Sequence record: NC_048195.1
Reading direction: 5' to 3' (one strand)
DNA from: Escherichia phage vB_EcoM_WFC
DNA: 64,000 nucleotides
The notes under the pieces were generated by a model, which worked only from the letters and a program-made list of their open reading frames with translations, searched no databases and was not told the DNA's origin. Below, in pieces: positions 7,968 to 55,604 of this stretch. The position numbers and the translations under genes were made by a program. The first letter of the stretch is position 1. Each line of letters opens with the position of its first letter.

Positions 7968-8309
7968 TTAATTTCTTTTGAGAGGAATATGACGATTGCT
8001 GCCATTATTTGGTTTAATAATGAGCATAAATATGATCAAAAAGATGATGGCTGATATACTTAATTCAATCAGCGCGGCCTGAGAAATGGATTGGTCTTCG
8101 TGATATTGCTTTTGCATTTCGGCCTTCTTTTGAGCGCAAACTTCAGGCGATATATAATCACCTTTTGAATTGCCATAATAGATTTCGCCGTTTTCTGAAA
8201 TAAGGCGTCCGCAAATATCTGTTTCGGCTTTTGCGCTGGACATCATAATTACAGTTCCAATGATTGCCGCGATGGTCCAGATTAGCAGTTGTGATAAGGT
8301 GTTATTCAT
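7968..8309 (-). CDS. Membrane protein (N-terminal signal/TM and C-terminal TM)
   Basis: 113 aa; hydrophobic segments at both ends. Confidence 0.5.
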   Translation of the reverse strand: MNNTLSQLLIWTIAAIIGTVIMMSSAKAETDICGRLISENGEIYYGNSKGDYISPEVCAQKKAEMQKQYHEDQSISQAALIELSISAIIFLIIFMLIIKPNNGSNRHIPLKRN

Positions 8310-37926: not shown

Positions 37927-38150
37927 ACGGCTTCAACCTGGACAGGCGGCGCGGAACTTGTATCAATGTCTGGCAAGTCGAAGTAATACCCCGCCATGCC
38001 AATCACGCCAACAATCGCGGCCCGTGCCACCTTGTTGCTAATTGACTCCCCAATAAGCTTTACCAACAGGGACAAGATTTGAGACGTCAAAGCCTTTTTC
38101 AGCCTTTTGTTTTCTTCCAAATCTTTCTGCATAACTACCACCCATGTCAA
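37920..38150 (-). CDS. Small membrane protein (1 TM)
   Basis: 76 aa; hydrophobic AAIVGVIGMAGYYF. Confidence 0.4.
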   Translation of the reverse strand: MTWVVVMQKDLEENKRLKKALTSQILSLLVKLIGESISNKVARAAIVGVIGMAGYYFDLPDIDTSSAPPVQVEAVK

Positions 38151-38689
38151 CGCACATCCTGTGTCTTAACATTACCTGAAGCATCTCTTAAGGGCAGTGG
38201 ATAGTAGGCCATTTGGTAGTCTGATACGCCTTCAACATGATAAAACACGATTACGTCTTTGCTGTTGATGAGCATGTTAACGACATCTGATTTATCTTCT
38301 GGAGTGAGTATGAGTGCGCCGCCTGTCCTGCTGTCTACTGCAACAGGGTATGTCTTGTCGACAAGGCCGCTGTCCAATGTATTATACCTGACAACGATTT
38401 CAGCGGCATCAACTTTTGCAATTGACATTCCGAACACAAACGAAACGACTTGGCGACCGCGATCATTCATTACGCACATCTTTTCCTTATCAAACCTTTT
38501 CTTTATCACATCATATTTGTTCCAGCAAAATTCGAACGATTGGCCGTTGTTAAAATATCTCGTTAACACTTTGGCATTACTATTTGGCGGCGTAAACATA
38601 CTTTCAGCCGCTGCACTTTTGGTGAAGAACAAGACTGTCAGCATAGCCATGATGGTGATCAAAACAATCTTTAAAGTTTTCGATTTCAT
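38147..38689 (-). CDS. Secreted/periplasmic protein with N-terminal signal peptide
   Basis: 180 aa; MKSKTLKIVLITIMAMLTVLFFTKSAAAE signal-like N-terminus. Confidence 0.5.
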   Translation of the reverse strand: MKSKTLKIVLITIMAMLTVLFFTKSAAAESMFTPPNSNAKVLTRYFNNGQSFEFCWNKYDVIKKRFDKEKMCVMNDRGRQVVSFVFGMSIAKVDAAEIVVRYNTLDSGLVDKTYPVAVDSRTGGALILTPEDKSDVVNMLINSKDVIVFYHVEGVSDYQMAYYPLPLRDASGNVKTQDVR

Positions 38690-40454: not shown

Positions 40455-40970
40455 CTATTTTTCCTTTGATGCATTGAATTGATCGATTTTTATTTTAGCC
40501 TGATTATAAGTATCAATCAAGCTATTAACTTTCTCTTTTAATCGATTTGTTTCTGCGGCGAACTGAACAAGAAATCTGACATCCTCTTCTGATAGTCCAC
40601 AGTTTCCTTCTGGGATAGAGAGGCGTCCAGTGGTCGCAGAGTCGGGCACACTCCTGAGTAACTCACGGGAGCAGCTGAGTTGCTCGCGCAACTTGACATT
40701 CCCAGACTTGTAACGAGCAATAGTGTCATCAGCAACCAGTTGCGCTTCCTGGCGACCCTTCTCATATGCCGATGCCGATTCAACCTGTAAAGTTGCAATT
40801 TGCTCTTCGAGTGCATTTATCTTGTCCTTACGCTCATTAAGCGATGTCAGATATTGATTATCCTTGGCCAGTGATGCGTTGGTTTGCTGCAGGTCTTCAA
40901 CGTATGATCCAGCGGCAAACGCGCCAACAAGGGCCAGAATCTTCAGGAGCGGTACAATTCTTTCTATCAT
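40455..40970 (-). CDS. i-spanin (Rz-like)
   Basis: 171 aa; N-terminal TM then coiled coil; embedded +1 frame lipoprotein ORF. Confidence 0.55.
   Translation of the reverse strand: MIERIVPLLKILALVGAFAAGSYVEDLQQTNASLAKDNQYLTSLNERKDKINALEEQIATLQVESASAYEKGRQEAQLVADDTIARYKSGNVKLREQLSCSRELLRSVPDSATTGRLSIPEGNCGLSEEDVRFLVQFAAETNRLKEKVNSLIDTYNQAKIKIDQFNASKEK
40538..40765 (-). CDS. o-spanin (Rz1-like) embedded in Rz frame
   Basis: Embedded ORF with signal-like MRRVARKRNWLLMTLLLVTSLGMSSC and near-lipobox Cys; start uncertain (40765 or 40729). Confidence 0.4.
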   Translation of the reverse strand: MRRVARKRNWLLMTLLLVTSLGMSSCASNSAAPVSYSGVCPTLRPLDASLSQKETVDYQKRMSDFLFSSPQKQID

Positions 40971-47666: not shown

Positions 47667-48208
47667 TATTTACTCCAGATGTCATATACGCCAATTTGTT
47701 GGCAGACTTTGTGCAGTAATATTACGTCGTCTAATGCACGGTGCTTCTGTTCATATTTTCCGAAATATAATTCATACAGCTCTTGAAGCTTAACTCTTCG
47801 GCCAAAAATAGGCAAGGTTTGCTCAACTGTACATATGTTTATTTCTGGAAAATTAACATCATCAAGCGTAAGTCCTTCGCGCTGTAGTGCATAATCAAGA
47901 ATGTTTTTATCGAACGCATGGTTGTGCGCGATAGTTGCATCAGTCTTCTTGAAGATTTCTTTTAGCTGCGGGACGAAATTGATGAACGGTGGATTGCACT
48001 CAAGATCTTCATTTGTTAATCCGGTAATCTTTGTGATAATTTCTTCAATCACGATTTCAGGATTAATTATGAATTCAAACGTTTCAAGAATCTCTTTGCC
48101 GTCTGTCAGCAAGCCTGCAAATTCAATAGGGCGCGGCTGCATCCCAAGCGGCGCTTTCGGGTGCACGGTCAATCCGGTTGTTTCGAAGTCATAAGGGAGA
48201 AATAACAC
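47666..48208 (-). CDS. DnaQ-like 3'-5' exonuclease (proofreading subunit)
   Basis: 180 aa; Exo I DFETTG, Exo II HNHAFD, Exo III H-x4-D. Confidence 0.8.
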   Translation of the reverse strand: MLFLPYDFETTGLTVHPKAPLGMQPRPIEFAGLLTDGKEILETFEFIINPEIVIEEIITKITGLTNEDLECNPPFINFVPQLKEIFKKTDATIAHNHAFDKNILDYALQREGLTLDDVNFPEINICTVEQTLPIFGRRVKLQELYELYFGKYEQKHRALDDVILLHKVCQQIGVYDIWSK

Positions 48209-48219
48209 ATTAGCCTCCT

Positions 48220-48246
48220 ACAAAAAGGCCGCCCATTAGGACGGCC
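48220..48246 (-). terminator. Rho-independent terminator (minus strand)
   Basis: GGCCG/CGGCC hairpin followed on minus strand by TTTTTG. Confidence 0.5.
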
Positions 48247-48262
48247 ACAGATTCACGATTCG

Positions 48263-48814
48263 TTATACAGTGTACGGAGTACCGTCTTGATTCAAGCGCA
48301 CGATAAACTTCAAATCAACGCCGATGATTTCACGCGTATCAAAGATCACATAGTTGTAACGACGTTGACCAGCAATGTTTGGGTTGGTGTGAGAGTCGGT
48401 CACAACTTCCTGCGCAACCTGAATGCCTTCTTCTTTAAAGAACTTGCGCCATTCAGCAAGTTCAGCGGCAGTCACGTGCATACCAAGATGGCTAACCTGA
48501 TTGTCGTGCGCATCGATGTATTCGATGTTTTCGTGAATCCAGTTGCAACCTTTTGTATAGTCAAGAATTTCAAGCTCAAGAGGCTTACCAGCGCCGCCAT
48601 CGGTGCCGTTGCCAGCCTGATAGTTGAAGCGCAAGTCAGCTTCGTTGGTGCAATCGCCGCGCTGACCCTTAAAGACATCAGCTTCAAATACGCGACCAGT
48701 AGCAACAACGTGATCATGGAACCATTCTGTCAGGCCGATTTTAGCCAGGAAATTCTGTGCGCGCTGAGCACCTGGAATTGACAGGGCGATTTGTTCAATT
48801 TTAAAATGTGGCAT
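48263..48814 (-). CDS. Hypothetical enzyme-like protein (possible VOC/glyoxalase fold)
   Basis: 183 aa; fold assignment weak. Confidence 0.4.
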   Translation of the reverse strand: MPHFKIEQIALSIPGAQRAQNFLAKIGLTEWFHDHVVATGRVFEADVFKGQRGDCTNEADLRFNYQAGNGTDGGAGKPLELEILDYTKGCNWIHENIEYIDAHDNQVSHLGMHVTAAELAEWRKFFKEEGIQVAQEVVTDSHTNPNIAGQRRYNYVIFDTREIIGVDLKFIVRLNQDGTPYTV

Positions 48815-48910
48815 TTTGTTTCCTTAATTAAATATTATTGATTAATTACTGTGTTGTCTTCGTCCTGTTTCTTTTCAGGAGCGGGTGTGACAACTTCAAA
48901 TGTTCGTGAT

Positions 48911-49594
48911 TTATTTACCAAATGGAATATCAGTGCCAGACATAAAGCGCCATGCGCCCGTAATTAAGATATGGCGAATGAAGTCAGCAATTACTTGCGG
49001 CTCAGTCTCCAATCCATTCATCAATGCCTTTTTCTGGTATTCAGCGGCGTATTCAGGAGTCCAGCCGCGAGTCGCGCAAACGGCATCTTCAATCTGTTTA
49101 GACATGCCAGTGCCGCGCAACTTGTTAGGACTAATAGAGAATACCGTGATGCCGTACTTAGGCGTAAGTTCGTGAGCCATCTGCTTGCTGATCATAAGCG
49201 CAGCAGCCTTGGATGCATTATAACATAAGCTGGACGTCATAGGAATATGCGCAGCGTTGGAAACGATGTTGATCACAAAGCCTTTGTTGTCGATAAGACT
49301 TTTCAGCGCAGCCTGAGTCGTGTTAACGAAAGAGAATGCGTTGGTGTGCATAACGCGGTTAAACTCTTCATAGTTTACATCTTCAAACCAATTGTTAGAG
49401 TTGACACCAGCACAGTTGATCAAGCCTTCAACATCATATGGGCTTAAAATTTCTTTCATCTGTTTAGCATCGCGGACGTCATATCCGTATGCTGAATCGA
49501 TGCCAAGCACGTTATGACCGTAAGCGCCAAGGGTGTCAAAAATAGATTTACCAAGACCGGAATTGGAACCTGTTACAACAATTACTTTTTTCAT
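48911..49594 (-). CDS. Short-chain dehydrogenase/reductase (SDR) family oxidoreductase
   Basis: 227 aa; N-terminal TGSNSGLG (TGxxxGxG) and catalytic YNASK (YxxxK). Confidence 0.75.
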   Translation of the reverse strand: MKKVIVVTGSNSGLGKSIFDTLGAYGHNVLGIDSAYGYDVRDAKQMKEILSPYDVEGLINCAGVNSNNWFEDVNYEEFNRVMHTNAFSFVNTTQAALKSLIDNKGFVINIVSNAAHIPMTSSLCYNASKAAALMISKQMAHELTPKYGITVFSISPNKLRGTGMSKQIEDAVCATRGWTPEYAAEYQKKALMNGLETEPQVIADFIRHILITGAWRFMSGTDIPFGK

Positions 49595-49660
49595 TTATTT
49601 ATCCTTTTTTGGACTTCGTTTCGATGAGGTAAATATAACTCATCGAAACGCACAAGTAAA

Positions 49661-50536
49661 CTATTTATTGAAATTAATATTATGGGTGTTGACAAGACGT
49701 TCACACATGGCGCTATAAACACCATCATCGTGTATCGAGTCTTCATGCTTCAGGCCGCTGATTGCGAAGCGTGTAAGCTTGACAATCTTAAGCTCGAACA
49801 GGTGCCACATGTGGTAGTCTTCCGGTGTCTTCAACGTTACGCCATTAGGGAACAACACCTGCATAACCTGACCTACCATCACAGCGTTATCGCCATAAAC
49901 GGCATTGCGCTCACGGAAGGTCGCGGCCATCGCATCAAGAATATCAGCAGCGGTTGCTGGGGCTTGTTGTTCAACTTCAACAAGTTTAGTCTCTTCTTTC
50001 CCTGTTGCACTTGGATCAACTGCTAATTGTTGCACCACTTCACCTGCCTTGCAAAGATTAAATGTAAAGGCGATTTTATTTTGCGCCATGGAATTATAAT
50101 GCAAAGCTTCTTCTTGCATCCGCGCGAGTACGTCTTGTCTATCTTCAAATACGTTGATTATTCGATAATCGCCGTGTCGCAATACATACGATAACCATGC
50201 AGATTTCATAACAGTTGATGGACGCTTGTCGCCATGTTCTCTCATCTTGATTGTGAATTCATCAAAAGGGAAAACGTTGTCCAGACGTTCAAAAGTGACT
50301 TGTCTGTATTTTTCTGGTCTTGCAGTCCAATATTCAACCGCCTCACCGCGAAGTGATGCCGTCTCTACTGCTGACGCAATGTTAGGATAGAACTGATCAT
50401 AACCAATGCCGCTGTGGTAATCATCATAGTCGGACAACGGGCCTGCCACCCTGATACGGTCTAAGCGCCAACGGTCATCAAACAGAGTTCCGTCAAGGTC
50501 GAATACGTTTAAGATTTGGTTATTTTTGATACTCAT
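49661..50536 (-). CDS. HAD-superfamily phosphatase fused to C-terminal domain of unknown function
   Basis: 291 aa; HAD motif I FDLDGTLFDD; about 150-aa C-terminal extra domain. Confidence 0.55.
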   Translation of the reverse strand: MSIKNNQILNVFDLDGTLFDDRWRLDRIRVAGPLSDYDDYHSGIGYDQFYPNIASAVETASLRGEAVEYWTARPEKYRQVTFERLDNVFPFDEFTIKMREHGDKRPSTVMKSAWLSYVLRHGDYRIINVFEDRQDVLARMQEEALHYNSMAQNKIAFTFNLCKAGEVVQQLAVDPSATGKEETKLVEVEQQAPATAADILDAMAATFRERNAVYGDNAVMVGQVMQVLFPNGVTLKTPEDYHMWHLFELKIVKLTRFAISGLKHEDSIHDDGVYSAMCERLVNTHNINFNK

Positions 50537-51336
50537 CCTTTTGATACTCCATCTTTGGCAACTGGATTATTGGTGATTGGCATCGCATCCCAAAACTGGA
50601 TGCGCAACTCTTCTTGCTGTGCAGTGGTATCCATCCAATCACGATACCATGGGCAATGGGCCTTACCGTGACGAGGAAATGCGCACTTACCCATACCGAT
50701 GCACTGCGGCTGTAGTAAAGGATTGGCCCACGGGTGCACCTTAAGGACTTCCGCAACCATTGCACGGAATACTTCTTGATACTCGCCTTGAGTACGCGTG
50801 CACAAGCGGTTAGAGGCCATTTGTTGTAGAGTGCGCAAGTTGAACTTTGCCATGATATGCGTTTGCATATTAGAAGGCAACACGGCACGTGCATCTTGAA
50901 TCTCTGCGCCAGCCGCGCGAAGTTCTTGGTATAGGGCGTCAATGGTTGCCATTGCATCATCCCATTTCTCTGCCAGTTCAGCAGCCTTCTCGTCATGACG
51001 AGTCCATCCCTTTGGATCATCCTCTGGGTAAGTAAATTTGGCAGGACGAATCGCATCAAACGCTGATGACTCTTGAGCGCGGCTTGTGCGTTCTTGATAT
51101 GCACCTGTTCGTGTGCGCACCATCTGATGAGTCATATTCTTTGATACATCAGTGATGTCAAAGATATAGTCAACAAAGTCGAAAGGTGACTTGATGGTGT
51201 CAAGCATGTAGCGCCAGTGCTCTTGCTTCTCTGATTCTGTCATCTCAGAGACGGGCTTGCCAGTCATGCGCGTGTTCTTTGTTTCCAGCAAAAGGTCAAG
51301 TGCATCTTGGGTGTATCGAATTAATTCAACTTTCAT
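50533..51336 (-). CDS. thyX: Flavin-dependent thymidylate synthase ThyX
   Basis: 267 aa; THQMVRTRTGAYQERTSR aligns to ThyX core RHR...Y.E.S.R; second block ARAVLPSNMQTHIMAKFNLRTL; 4-nt overlap with HAD gene. Confidence 0.7.
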   Translation of the reverse strand: MKVELIRYTQDALDLLLETKNTRMTGKPVSEMTESEKQEHWRYMLDTIKSPFDFVDYIFDITDVSKNMTHQMVRTRTGAYQERTSRAQESSAFDAIRPAKFTYPEDDPKGWTRHDEKAAELAEKWDDAMATIDALYQELRAAGAEIQDARAVLPSNMQTHIMAKFNLRTLQQMASNRLCTRTQGEYQEVFRAMVAEVLKVHPWANPLLQPQCIGMGKCAFPRHGKAHCPWYRDWMDTTAQQEELRIQFWDAMPITNNPVAKDGVSKG

Positions 51337-51349
51337 TTTAATTATCCTA

Positions 51350-51796
51350 TTAACGGTAGTTAACTAGTTGCTGATCACCAGAGAAGGTGCAATGATAAAC
51401 GAATTGTGCGTTATAAAGCAACTGAAAACTTTTCTTTGGTTCATTATTAGAACTCATTGATGTAAAGATTTCTGCACCAGAACGGTTTTCACCAATAAGG
51501 TTGATAAAGCCGCCAGTTGAACGAGGTTGGACGAAAGTGAAACGTTGCATCCACGGAGTGCGGTTGGCACCTTTCCCTGTGAATCCCTGAATCTGAATAT
51601 TCAGACCTTCTTGCTCGTTCACACCGATGTAAGTGGTAATTGTTGCGCCAGTCGTCGCTGCAGTCTTGCCGTCCATCGCTTCGCAATCGTAAACAGCGAT
51701 TGAATCGGAAGTACGGACAGCGGCTTCAGTCGCTTCCATATACATGGTTCCGAGAATAGCAGTTGCGGCAAGCGCGATTCCAGTGATGCGTTTCAT
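51350..51796 (-). CDS. Small secreted protein with signal peptide (function unknown)
   Basis: 148 aa; MKRITGIALAATAILG... signal-like N-terminus; two Cys. Confidence 0.5.
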   Translation of the reverse strand: MKRITGIALAATAILGTMYMEATEAAVRTSDSIAVYDCEAMDGKTAATTGATITTYIGVNEQEGLNIQIQGFTGKGANRTPWMQRFTFVQPRSTGGFINLIGENRSGAEIFTSMSSNNEPKKSFQLLYNAQFVYHCTFSGDQQLVNYR

Positions 51797-51861
51797 TTTC
51801 GTTTCCTCTATGAGTTCTGCTTCAATGATTAAAGTATACGCCCATTGAAGCAGAAAGCAAA

Positions 51862-52857
51862 TTATTTATTAGCAATATAAGCAAATTTTTGATAGTTATT
51901 TGCTTTGATGAGTTTTTCAACTTCAGCAAGGTCATGGGCGACGTCATCAAGCAAAATGTTTCGCCAAGTAGCGAATCGACCGACACTAAATACGTTCAAA
52001 TCCATGGTCAGTTGCAGGAGTAGGGCGTGTCGTAAGTCTTTCGGAATGTCGACAATCTTGCCATACTTCTGGTCAACCTTTTCAACTTCTTCAAGAGCGA
52101 TGTCACTCCATGAGAGGCCAAAAGCCGTCAATACTTCGTCAACTTCTGCACGCAACTTAATGTCACGGTAACGAGTAATGCCGCCAGCGGCTTCAACTGC
52201 GGCTTCACTTACGCTAACCAAAGGAATTGTTTCAATGATCAGCGTGTCACCAGTGATTGATGCGCGGTAAGTTCTGACGGAGTAGTCAGGAAAGTAAATG
52301 GTTTGATACAGTTCACACTTGCGTTTAATCTTAAAGCGGTAAACACGAATGTTTGCCTTATCGAATGAGAAATCAATCTTTTGATCAATCCCAGCAAGCT
52401 TCATCATGACTGGCAGCGGCGATGTGTTGATGATTGGCGTCTCGCTATAGCCGCAAAGCGTGTCGACCGGAGTATTAAAGAATATACGGTCACCCAGTTT
52501 ATCGACAAGCTGATCATAAAAGTCATCAGGCGCAATATAACGCGTTGCAGTTTTAAGCTTCATGATTGAACGGCTGCCAAACTGATTGGTGACCTTCATG
52601 GAATACATATTGGCAAGGTTGATTGGGCAATGGTCGTGATAGTAGTTACCGCGAAAATACACAGCCTTGTCAACTGTCACGGCCTTAAAAGGGATTCCGG
52701 TAATACGGCTTACTTCTTCGCCGCGAAAGCGTAGCAGTGCCTTGTGCTGTGGCGCTCGCTCCCCTGCTTCGTACACAATAGAGTTCGGGAAGTGACACGC
52801 GGTAATAAGTCCTGCCAAACCGCCGCCGATAATCATTACAGGTTGTTTCATGTTCAT
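51862..52857 (-). CDS. FAD/NAD(P)-binding oxidoreductase
   Basis: 331 aa; N-terminal Rossmann dinucleotide motif VMIIGGGLAGL. Confidence 0.6.
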   Translation of the reverse strand: MNMKQPVMIIGGGLAGLITACHFPNSIVYEAGERAPQHKALLRFRGEEVSRITGIPFKAVTVDKAVYFRGNYYHDHCPINLANMYSMKVTNQFGSRSIMKLKTATRYIAPDDFYDQLVDKLGDRIFFNTPVDTLCGYSETPIINTSPLPVMMKLAGIDQKIDFSFDKANIRVYRFKIKRKCELYQTIYFPDYSVRTYRASITGDTLIIETIPLVSVSEAAVEAAGGITRYRDIKLRAEVDEVLTAFGLSWSDIALEEVEKVDQKYGKIVDIPKDLRHALLLQLTMDLNVFSVGRFATWRNILLDDVAHDLAEVEKLIKANNYQKFAYIANK

Positions 52858-52930
52858 TTGTCCTTTGTGGGTGATATGAGAAGTATAATAGCTAAATTAT
52901 TTTACAGCAACAAGTCATTTCTATTTAGTA

Positions 52931-52963
52931 CAGACGAAAAAAGACCCACAACAAGTGTGGGTC
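52931..52963 (-). terminator. Rho-independent terminator (minus strand)
   Basis: GACCCACA/TGTGGGTC hairpin followed on minus strand by TTTTTTCG. Confidence 0.55.
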
Positions 52964-52991
52964 AATTACCGCTATATAACCGTCCTACAGG

Positions 52992-53837
52992 TTATTCCGC
53001 TTGATCACCGTCTTCAGCATCGTCGTTGGATTCAACATCGACAAACTCGATGTGGCCCATCTCTTCCAGCTTGCTCAGGTAGGAGCGAACGGAAGCGCCA
53101 AACAGTTGATCTTTAACTTTTTCGCCCAGCTCATCGATAGACTGTGCCACACCAACTTCGCCTTCTTTGATCGCCGCCAGAACGCGTCCACGGGTGGAAT
53201 GCTCTTGCGGCTGGCTCAGGCCATTGCCAGTGTAGATGAAGTGAGTGGCTTTTGCACGACGCTGACCGTTTGCCTTTTTAGCAGCCTTACGTTCTGCGAT
53301 GGCTTTGCGACGTTCTTCAGCTTCTTTCTTACGCTGTTCTTTCTGCTGTTCTGCAGCTTCTTTCGCCGCAATCTTAGCAGCTTCACGCTCTGCCTTGCGT
53401 TTCGCTTTAGCTTCTTCTTTGGCCTTCTCTTTTTCGGCCTTCGCTGCAGCACGGGCTTGATCACGCTCTGCTTTCTTGGCCGCAGCCTGCTCAGCTTTCA
53501 GGCGCTTGGCTTCTTCTTTAGCCTTTGCCTTTTCGATTTCTTTTGCTGCTTTAGCGGCTTCACGCTCTGCTTTCTTAGCAGCAGCCTTTTCTGCACGCTC
53601 TTTAGCTTTCTTAGCTGCTTCTTCAGCACGCTTCTGAGCCTTCTCATCAGCAGCCTGCTTGCGTTTCAGCGCAGCTTCTTCACGCTTGGCTTGTTTTTCC
53701 TGCTCACGCTTCTGGCGTTTTTCTTCGGCTTCTTTCTTTTTAGCCAGGCGTTTTTCTTCAGCCACGCGACGACGTTCTGCTGCGGCTGCTTGTTTTTCTT
53801 CTTTAGATAATACTTTGATTGCTTCGGCCATATTCAC
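52992..53837 (-). CDS. Lys/Ala/Glu-rich low-complexity coiled-coil protein with globular C-terminal domain
   Basis: 281 aa; about 200 aa of KAEEKR-type charged repeats then about 80-aa non-repetitive C-terminus. Confidence 0.55.
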   Translation of the reverse strand: MNMAEAIKVLSKEEKQAAAAERRRVAEEKRLAKKKEAEEKRQKREQEKQAKREEAALKRKQAADEKAQKRAEEAAKKAKERAEKAAAKKAEREAAKAAKEIEKAKAKEEAKRLKAEQAAAKKAERDQARAAAKAEKEKAKEEAKAKRKAEREAAKIAAKEAAEQQKEQRKKEAEERRKAIAERKAAKKANGQRRAKATHFIYTGNGLSQPQEHSTRGRVLAAIKEGEVGVAQSIDELGEKVKDQLFGASVRSYLSKLEEMGHIEFVDVESNDDAEDGDQAE

Positions 53838-53990
53838 AGTCCTTAAATAAATTAGTTTATTTTATATTCCCCGTTTGGGATAACTTAATTATGCCTTCAG
53901 TCGCCGCCAGTAGCAACTAAAAACTATGGCGGCAATGCCACTTTAATTAAACTGATTTTCAGTTTTATTTTTCGTAAATTTACGTCAACA

Positions 53991-55175
53991 TTAACGCGCT
54001 TTCAAATCACGGTACACGGTCAGATTCTTCTTAGCGCGGGTGATTGCGGTGTACATCATCTTGGAGTACGGGACGCCGCGCAAGATTTCTTCCAGCACGC
54101 ACACATTATCCCACTCGCTGCCTTGCGATTTGTGCACCGTGATTACATAGCCATAGTCCATCCCGCCAACAGCGCGTTGCGCTTCTTTGCGCACTTCCTG
54201 ATCAGTAGAGAAGGAAAGAGGATTGATCTTCACCTTTATATCTTTACCATCAGTTAATGAACGCAAGTTGACATACATTATTTCATTCGACTCGTCTTCA
54301 TCCCTTTCAAAGTCCGGCACTGGTTCATAGCTAATAACAATCCCTTGCTCGCCATTACAGAATCCTGGCCCGTGCTGGTTGAAGGTGCAAATAACTTTCT
54401 CGCCGATTCCTGGCATTGGCGTTATACGTCCGCTCACTTGCCGTAATAATGAATTCCATTTATCTTTGGTGCTATTATAGGAGCAAATAATTTGATCATC
54501 TTCGCCCATGAATTTCTTCAATGCAGTAACGCGCGGCGATTCTGCCAATACTTTGACGTCATCGTATTCACGCGGAGGAAGGCGGTTGCCTTGGCGCACG
54601 AAGAAGGAGGCGCGGATTATATTGGACTCTTTCCCTTGCCGCATGATTTCGGTTAACAGCACGTCAACGGCATCTTCAGTAAAGTAGGCGGCGGCTTTTA
54701 CCGGAGGGACTTGTCCAATGTCGCCTAATGCCAGGACAGGGATGCGGTGATCAAGAAGGCGCTCTGTGTCCCACTCGCCAACCATCGACGCTTCATCGAG
54801 TACAACAAGGTGCGGCCTTTCATCCAGCTTTGACTTTCTCGAAAAGATTGGCTCATTGTCGTCATTTACGCCGCGCACGTTATAGATGAACTGGTGAAGG
54901 GTCTTAGCGCCACGACAGCCTTTTTGCTTTAATCGGCTTGCAGCCTTTCCGGTCGGCGCAATATAGATAGCGCCGTACTCACCGACACAGCGGCGCACAA
55001 TCTCACGAGCAATAGAGGTTTTACCAGTCCCTGCATAGCCAGCAATGAAAAACACACGCTTCGTCGTTTTACCGTCCTGCAATCGCTTGTACCATGCAAC
55101 GGCCTTCTCGATGGCATCGATTTGTTGCGCGTTAAACTGAATAACTGGCTCATCATTAAATTCTGGAATGTTCAT
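53991..55175 (-). CDS. Dda/RecD-like superfamily 1 DNA helicase
   Basis: 394 aa; Walker A GYAGTGKT, Walker B VVLDEASM, C-terminal VHKSQGSEWD. Confidence 0.8.
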   Translation of the reverse strand: MNIPEFNDEPVIQFNAQQIDAIEKAVAWYKRLQDGKTTKRVFFIAGYAGTGKTSIAREIVRRCVGEYGAIYIAPTGKAASRLKQKGCRGAKTLHQFIYNVRGVNDDNEPIFSRKSKLDERPHLVVLDEASMVGEWDTERLLDHRIPVLALGDIGQVPPVKAAAYFTEDAVDVLLTEIMRQGKESNIIRASFFVRQGNRLPPREYDDVKVLAESPRVTALKKFMGEDDQIICSYNSTKDKWNSLLRQVSGRITPMPGIGEKVICTFNQHGPGFCNGEQGIVISYEPVPDFERDEDESNEIMYVNLRSLTDGKDIKVKINPLSFSTDQEVRKEAQRAVGGMDYGYVITVHKSQGSEWDNVCVLEEILRGVPYSKMMYTAITRAKKNLTVYRDLKAR

Positions 55176-55501: not shown

Positions 55502-55604
55502 TTCAGGCGACCTTTGTTAGTGCGGAAATATTTTTTGATAGTATAATTGCAGATATAGTATAAAGCAAAGTAAATCGAAATTGTGAACTAAATGGTAAAT
55601 ATTG

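Follow-up and report, generated by a model that had tools for sequence, protein, structure and literature searches.

What is a small protein with an export signal doing among the cytoplasmic enzymes of a phage operon? This question was raised by an open reading frame, here called ORF148, in a stretch of 64,000 nucleotides of Escherichia phage vB_EcoM_WFC (NC_048195.1), which was analysed as a whole and is referred to as the window. The initial annotation of this DNA had placed a 148-aa protein, endowed with an N-terminal signal sequence and two cysteines, between ThyX and an FAD oxidoreductase. The reading frame is indeed present, on the minus strand, with a good ribosome-binding site and under selective constraint, and its flanks are ThyX (Pfam Thy1) and a flavoprotein similar to UDP-galactopyranose mutase (UGM). 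The coordinates of these features are collected in Table 1. The 5-kb region around ORF148 is 99.8% identical to vB_Eco4M-7 (MN176217, a virulent myovirus of the genus Wifcevirus), in which ORF148 corresponds to gene 81 (gp81; vBEco4M7_81, QFG06902.1), and shares 93-97% identity with 25 other Wifcevirus records. In every annotated record the product is labelled "hypothetical protein", and this holds even for the Mansfield and BASEL Bas98-101 genomes, which were curated with care. The Wifcevirus phages are candidates for the biocontrol of E. coli O157; at least 60% of their genes lack an annotation.

Table 1. Features of ORF148 and its surroundings, and occupants of the corresponding slot between the UGM-like and ThyX genes in related phages. 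Positions refer to the window unless a locus is named.
Feature	Position	Strand	Description and evidence
ORF148 CDS	51350..51796	minus	ATG start, 148 aa plus stop; ORF list; CDS feature of MN176217 and of 26 further Wifcevirus records
Predicted Sec signal peptide, residues 1-25 (MKRITGIALAATAILGTMYMEATEA)	51722..51796	minus	SPase I site TEA↓AV; heuristic n/h/c and -3/-1 analysis; Hessa comparison
Predicted mature periplasmic domain, 123 aa	51353..51721	minus	all-beta (~8 strands), net charge ~0; AlphaFold2 secondary structure, low pLDDT
Ribosome-binding site AGAGGA	51804..51809	minus	read from sequence; RBS feature in Mansfield record
Promoter-like element TTGCTT-N16-TATACT	51833..51860	minus	directly 5' of ORF148; recurrent motif, putative function
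Perfect inverted repeat, 13-nt arms	51815..51855		repeat search; 14-bp stem as RNA, 13-15 nt loop
ThyX	50533-51336		flank of ORF148; Pfam Thy1 match (1.2e-30)
UGM-like flavoprotein, 331 aa	51862-52857		flank of ORF148; GxGxxG N-terminus; phrog_4828 match
Slot content, XcP1			no gene
Slot content, Serratia phages			one 86-aa ORF
Slot content, PB1			five small ORFs
Slot content, Wifcevirus			ORF148
Slot protein of L025/L029, 137 aa	L025 4951-5364 / L029 3340-3753		...SLNAMA↓QP, two Cys; heuristic signal peptide
Slot protein of L031, 105 aa			...VSSAMA↓NQ; heuristic signal peptide
Slot protein of L045, 98 aa			...LSVQA↓TD; heuristic signal peptide
Slot protein of L089, 233 aa	L089 4273-4974		signal peptide, TM segment and C-terminal HNH nuclease domain; heuristic signal peptide

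The GAGG core of the Shine-Dalgarno sequence lies 8 nt 5' of the ATG. When the protein was searched by tblastn, ORF148 was found intact and at full length in 27 of 27 Wifcevirus records, with 94.6-100% amino acid identity. Four Wifcevirus UViGs retrieved from IMG/VR likewise carry the complete gene. The idea that the gene might be variably present among relatives therefore fails within the genus. The comparison of nine orthologues gave pairwise dN/dS values of 0.02-0.13 (dS up to 0.36), and 46 of the 62 variable nucleotide columns are third codon positions. Since these ratios are low, the variable columns are mostly third positions and the frame is intact in all genomes, ORF148 is a genuine gene under strong purifying selection. 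The 13 variable residues in this set are conservative swaps (I/V, A/S/T, K/T, N/S and G/D), and substitutions so few and so conservative suggest that the target is conserved and that the protein is not engaged in an arms race.

The N-terminus of the protein consists of MKR (n-region, charge +2), followed by ITGIALAATAILGTMYM (17 uncharged residues, h-region) and by EATEA↓AV. Past the h-region there is a single good -3/-1 site, T-E-A (T at -3, A at -1), which would place the cut after residue 25. Kyte-Doolittle maxima are 1.82 for a 15-mer and 1.38 for a 19-mer, the latter being under the usual threshold for a TM segment, and 53% of the h-region is made up of Gly, Ala, Ser and Thr. On the Hessa scale, the sum for this segment is close to those of the OmpA and MalE signal peptides and of the SAR domain of T4 RI, and unlike that of the C-terminal TM helix that the phage itself has in ORF113. 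Residues 1-26 are invariant in all orthologues compared, and the predicted signal peptide (residues 1-25) is so in ten orthologue sequences. There is no lipobox ([LVI][ASTVI][GAS]C), the first cysteine being residue 38, after VYD, and no twin-arginine motif (S/T-R-R-x-F-L-K), the n-region MKRI being devoid of RR. By these heuristic measures, ORF148 has all the features of a Sec/SPase I substrate, namely a positive n-region, an uncharged hydrophobic h-region within the customary 7-17 residues, a polar c-region and small residues at -3 and -1. The signal sequence proposed in the initial annotation is thus borne out by a tripartite n/h/c layout, and export by means of a Sec signal peptide is a well-founded prediction, although it is a heuristic call rather than the output of a dedicated predictor.

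The two cysteines reported for this protein are Cys38 (51683-51685) and Cys136 (51389-51391). In the predicted 123-aa mature chain they would stand 13 residues from the N-terminus and 13 residues from the C-terminus, respectively. This layout appears typical of a DsbA-oxidised periplasmic protein, and a Cys38-Cys136 disulfide is probably formed. A different reading is that the hydrophobicity of the N-terminus is fortuitous and that the product stays in the cytoplasm, or even that the ORF is non-functional. It is true that export is deduced heuristically and that proteomic detection has not been reported (PMC7048862). Nevertheless, the textbook tripartite architecture, together with the dN/dS values and the integrity of the ORF in all genomes, makes this reading very unlikely.

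At the sequence level ORF148 is a complete orphan, with no detectable relatives beyond the genus. No match was obtained up to E≤10 in Pfam, PHROGs, NCBIfam and PADLOC, nor among PDB sequences (phmmer, E≤10). A word-indexed search of 5.8 billion proteins with the full-length and the mature sequence (E≤10) retrieved only the protein's own 90% cluster, and the same cluster was the only one found by exhaustive HMMER analysis of 1.84 billion representatives at 50% identity. Among phages, tblastn (E≤10) returned the 27 Wifcevirus records only. No meaningful counterpart was found in E. coli complete genomes or in PLSDB plasmids, and neither a paralogue elsewhere in the window nor an internal repeat was detected.

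Structure prediction and fold search, which the initial annotation had recommended, were of limited help. AlphaFold2, run on shallow alignments, failed to give a confident model and yielded a pLDDT of 31.8 for the full-length protein and of 44.8 (pTM 0.41) for the mature domain. Both runs show beta-strands only, about eight of them, at low pLDDT, and the first and last strands, which bear the cysteines, are the least uncertain parts of the models. Foldseek against BFVD found only the independent model of the Mansfield orthologue, with a TM score of 0.35. Since the best match is the protein's own orthologue at such a score, the two independent predictions disagree with each other. The mature protein is probably all-beta, a small barrel or sandwich, and "all-beta" is the only claim that we make on its fold.

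A small exported beta protein with a cysteine near each end recalls the periplasmic inhibitors of peptidoglycan hydrolases. We considered whether ORF148 may inhibit a host or phage hydrolase, in the manner of MliC/PliC or of Spackle, which would be a mechanistic sub-case of an action on the envelope. The sequence contains a superficial Y-x-C-[DE]...S-G-A...C pattern, with an SGA-to-Cys spacing like that of E. coli MliC, and the virion 79-kDa lytic transglycosylase is a possible target. However, the MliC HMM, whose reference sequence was checked against 2F09, scored -0.7 bits on ORF148, which is below many shuffled sequences (8.6 bits for the best of 500 shuffles), and hhalign gave a probability of 0.1%. 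Moreover, there is no Pfam MliC match (E≤10) and the motifs SxSGAxY and YxxxTKG are absent. An MliC/PliC identity was rejected on these grounds, and inhibition of a hydrolase is, in general, quite unlikely.

The position of ORF148 was then compared with that of its flanking genes in related phages. The UGM-like label of the 331-aa flank comes from the annotators of the Mansfield record, who used HHpred; in our searches it received no sequence support against the PDB. The gene order helicase, Ala/Lys/Glu-rich "TolA-like" virion protein, terminator, UGM-like flavoprotein, slot, ThyX, HAD/PNKP-type phosphatase and SDR is common to Wifcevirus, Myosmarvirus (Serratia), Carpasinavirus (Xanthomonas) and Pbunavirus (Pseudomonas), and the content of the slot differs among them (Table 1). 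The annotated slot proteins of the cultured relatives (Serratia phages and PB1) contain neither a signal peptide nor a TM segment. With an aligned set of UGM-like proteins as query, 80 further loci were collected from IMG/VR, and 79 of them have both flanking genes. Over these 79 loci the gap between the UGM-like gene and ThyX measures 8 nt at the least and 2,869 nt at the most, with zero to five unrelated ORFs in it. ORF148 is confined to five Wifcevirus loci, the window included, and phmmer at maximum sensitivity found no remote homologue of it among the surveyed slot ORFs outside Wifcevirus. In 75 of the 79 loci the two flanking genes are either adjacent or separated by unrelated ORFs, as expected of an accessory insertion that lies outside the conserved enzyme set.

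These data bear directly on the hypothesis that ORF148 is a functional partner of the flanking enzymes (the UGM-like flavoprotein, ThyX, the HAD phosphatase and the SDR), for instance a membrane or periplasmic subunit. The tight packing of the operon, with 13 nt between ORF148 and ThyX, and the co-conservation with the flanking genes within the genus are in line with it. On the other hand, the same enzymes occur without ORF148 in Pbunavirus, Myosmarvirus, Carpasinavirus and dozens of uncultured relatives. Since in these relatives the same slot holds nothing or unrelated ORFs, ORF148 is independent of the flanking enzymes. The synteny survey largely refutes a partner or subunit of this kind, which we regard as highly improbable, and it likewise gives no sign of an enzyme subunit with a TM anchor that is conserved together with the flanks, which the initial annotation had set against its own proposal. 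ORF148 thus occupies an accessory hotspot in a genus-specific manner and does not travel with its neighbours as a subunit.

As to the enzymes themselves, the module (48263-52857, minus strand, and loci L010-L093) comprises the UGM-like protein, ThyX, the HAD/PNKP phosphatase, the SDR and a VOC/glyoxalase-like protein, and is kept across Wifcevirus, Pbunavirus, Myosmarvirus and Carpasinavirus. It is a candidate pathway for the modification of DNA or nucleotides.

Among the possibilities raised by the initial annotation was a toxin-subunit-like moron. A secreted protein of this kind, whether a toxin subunit or a virulence moron, might act on a eukaryotic host or benefit the bacterium, and the predicted signal peptide, the two cysteines and the size of the mature protein, which is similar to that of AB5 B subunits, agree with it. 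Nevertheless, it is hardly credible for ORF148. No toxin family was matched in Pfam, NCBIfam or PDB (E≤10), and no gene for an A subunit is adjacent, the neighbours being ThyX and the UGM-like gene. Furthermore, the composition of the gene is not atypical and the gene is fixed in the genus. Its GC content is 0.456, and GC, GC3 and local CAI are indistinguishable from those of the neighbouring genes, so that no signature of horizontal transfer was seen. The phage vB_Eco4M-7 is virulent, it lacks lysogeny genes, and its authors' VFDB screen was negative (PMC7048862). A classical moron was rejected as well: a promoter-like element is present, but a terminator proper to the gene is lacking, ThyX is only 13 nt away, GC and codon usage match those of the neighbours, and the gene is found in 27 of 27 genomes. 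The phage, besides, is virulent (PMC7048862).

In at least four other lineages (L025/L029, L031, L045 and L089), the same slot is filled by proteins unrelated to ORF148 that carry a signal peptide according to our heuristic (Table 1). The 137-aa protein of L025/L029 gave a full-length but sub-threshold match to Pfam Adhesin_E (E=0.11). This match and one HNH domain are the only traces of a known family among these proteins, and no counterparts of them were found in cultured phages. Families with signal-peptide-like N-termini account for 6 of 57 in the slot and, in the flanks, for 6 of 320 (Fisher p=0.004, or 0.015 once a dubious case is removed), as counted by a home-made, start-codon-aware heuristic against an imperfect background. 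When signal peptides and TM segments were combined, there was no enrichment in the slot (p=0.14). The enrichment of exported proteins in the slot is therefore only suggestive.

A more ambitious view of these data is that ORF148 is the founder of a family of early periplasmic effectors with a new fold and that, together with the unrelated slot proteins of other Lindbergviridae, it reflects a convergent recruitment of envelope-directed factors to a promoter-proximal slot. We consider this view doubtful. Such factors might serve superinfection exclusion, interference with the receptor or O-antigen pathway, lysis timing or the fast infection cycle of Wifcevirus. A family-wide slot that recurrently hosts unrelated exported proteins would be a more interesting by-product of this analysis than ORF148 alone, and the slot just after the UGM-like gene would be a natural place to seek new effectors of the phage-host envelope interaction.

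The DNA 5' of ORF148 contains a promoter-like element that recurs in the window. The motif TTGCTK-N16/17-TATACT is present in three copies, as compared to 0.01 expected by chance. All of them are intergenic, on the minus strand and immediately 5' of a gene, namely ORF148 (51833-51860), the UGM-like gene (52882-52910) and the gp85/helicase unit (55540-55568). The motif probably represents a class of phage promoters read by host sigma-70. Six Wifcevirus genomes show no variation in the 65 nt upstream of ORF148. A special conservation of this region was nonetheless rejected, because the other intergenic regions of the operon (48100-54000) are also mostly 0-3.7% variable in their columns, versus mostly 11-18% in coding DNA; the exceptions to this pattern are the TolA-like gene (5.3%) and the glyoxalase-SDR spacer (26%).

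The same region contains a perfect inverted repeat (51815-51855), in whose loop the -10-like hexamer of the ORF148 motif is located. As RNA, this repeat folds with a dG of -19.1 kcal/mol (z -3.6). A second inverted repeat, at 49617-49650, 5' of the SDR gene, shares with it the core TTCRATG...CATYGAA (0.01 expected), and both repeats overlap a -10-like TATAYT. Since neither of them precedes a U-tract, they are not classical terminators, and the 51815-51855 hairpin was not flagged by the terminator scan either. It is possible that they function as operators of a regulator or as processing hairpins of RNase III type. Between ORF148 and ThyX no terminator was found.

A promoter is also predicted in the Serratia Myosmarvirus phages (L010 4398-4495 and L011 4410-4507), where a near-consensus sigma-70 sequence, TTGACG-N17-CATAAT, comes right after the UGM-like gene; the spacer contains a GC-rich hairpin. 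An internal promoter after the UGM-like gene may be a family-wide feature that feeds the variable slot.

Mass spectrometry of virions and lysates identified 33 proteins in vB_Eco4M-7 and 28 in ECML-117 (PMC7048862). Both gp81 and its ECML-117 orthologue are missing from these lists, which do include the neighbours gp77 and gp83 (PMC7048862). Neither transcriptomic nor mutational results for gene 81 were found in the papers on the phage. With regard to the two detected neighbours, the glyoxalase-like gp77 (48263-48814) and the Ala/Lys/Glu-rich "TolA" protein gp83 (52992-53837) are encoded among enzyme and replication genes and yet appear in the MS data (PMC7048862), which hints at packaged or ejected proteins.

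Two further exported orphans were recognised in the window. The first (113 aa, 7968-8309, minus strand) has a signal peptide ending in ...SSAKA↓ET and a C-terminal TM helix, and the second (180 aa, 38147-38689, minus strand) has a signal peptide ending in ...KSAAA↓ES. Neither has a PHROG match, and both are unrelated to ORF148.

The main rival to a role in exclusion or envelope protection is a role in lysis timing. In this case the N-terminus of ORF148 would remain uncleaved, or act as a signal-anchor-release segment, and the protein would be a membrane-tethered periplasmic regulator of lysis, antiholin-like as T4 RI, which could contribute to the unusual lysis timing reported for Wifcevirus. 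The T4 rI gene, too, is distant from the T4 holin gene, and the h-region of ORF148, rich in Gly, Ala, Ser and Thr and with a Hessa sum near that of the RI SAR domain, would suit this role. T4 RI is helical, in contrast to the predicted all-beta ORF148, which has in addition a good TEA↓A cleavage site. ORF148 also lies outside the lysis cassette, whose Rz-like spanin (40455-40970) is 10 kb away, and no holin, antiholin or spanin, nor any other lysis family, was matched in PHROGs. The very short latent periods reported for Wifcevirus would fit a regulator of this type (PMC11990801), but against the points just listed such a role appears unlikely. According to the same source, the receptor of these phages is the O-antigen, and they show broad RM resistance with no known protection mechanism (PMC11990801).

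We propose that ORF148 is transcribed alongside the early/middle genes for replication and metabolism. Its copy of the sigma-70-like promoter motif would drive this transcription, probably with a contribution of read-through from the promoter 5' of the UGM-like gene. The product would enter the Sec pathway by its N-terminal signal peptide and, once cut after Ala25, would be released as a soluble all-beta periplasmic protein of ~13.4 kDa, its first and last strands probably being tied by the Cys38-Cys136 disulfide. It would be neither a virion component nor a partner of the flanking enzymes, and most likely it would act on a conserved envelope target during infection. On balance, we think it probable that ORF148 is a genus-specific, early/middle, Sec-exported periplasmic accessory factor acting on the envelope. 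Host interaction or exclusion would be the most plausible role. More specifically, the exclusion of superinfecting phages or the protection of the envelope of the infected cell is put forward as the likeliest function, though a tentative one, by analogy with the few exported early proteins that have been characterised in virulent phages (T4 Sp/Imm, T5 Llp and T4 RI). A conserved, probably periplasmic, non-virion protein would be a testable handle on the manipulation of the host envelope, be it superinfection exclusion, lysis timing or receptor masking. If its function turns out to be mundane, little changes, and ORF148 will be one of many orphan genes of virulent phages.

Among known systems, T4 Spackle (Sp, gp61.3), T4 Imm and T5 Llp are early phage envelope proteins that mediate superinfection exclusion. 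Like them, ORF148 is small, comes from a virulent phage and bears an export signal at its N-terminus (predicted in the case of ORF148); its gene lies among early/middle genes (putatively so for ORF148), away from lysis and structural genes, and it is not a virion protein. The likeness is in logic only. There is no sequence or family relationship with these proteins, as no PHROG, Pfam or PADLOC match was found to the known exclusion families (Sp, Imm, Llp, Cor and Sie); besides, Sp is helical and Llp is a lipoprotein, whereas ORF148 is predicted to be all-beta and is devoid of a lipobox.

The comparison with MliC/PliC (PF09864; 2F09, 3F6Z) gives a similar picture. Small size, export, beta structure and a cysteine near each mature end are shared, as far as predicted for ORF148, and so is the S-G-A tripeptide at a similar spacing from the C-terminal cysteine. 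However, the profile tests fail, the mature chain of ORF148 is ~35 residues longer, and the motifs that insert into the catalytic site are absent. With the T4 antiholin RI, ORF148 shares a weakly hydrophobic, Gly/Ala/Thr-rich N-terminal segment resembling a signal peptide, a periplasmic location (predicted for ORF148), a virulent phage as its source and a gene away from that of the holin. It differs from RI in lacking homology to it and any link found to lysis genes, in being beta-rich and in being 50 residues longer.

From the point of view of genome organisation, the closest comparison is with accessory hotspots and with the small orphan ORFs scattered between conserved early genes of large virulent phages, such as the T4 nrdC.x and tk.x ORFs. 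Here, too, a lineage-specific ORF is found in a slot between core genes, and different, unrelated genes are found there in related phages. Unlike many ORFs of this type, ORF148 is fixed and highly conserved throughout the genus, and carries a predicted export signal. ORF148 would be a so far unclassifiable member of the exported accessory proteins of virulent phages.
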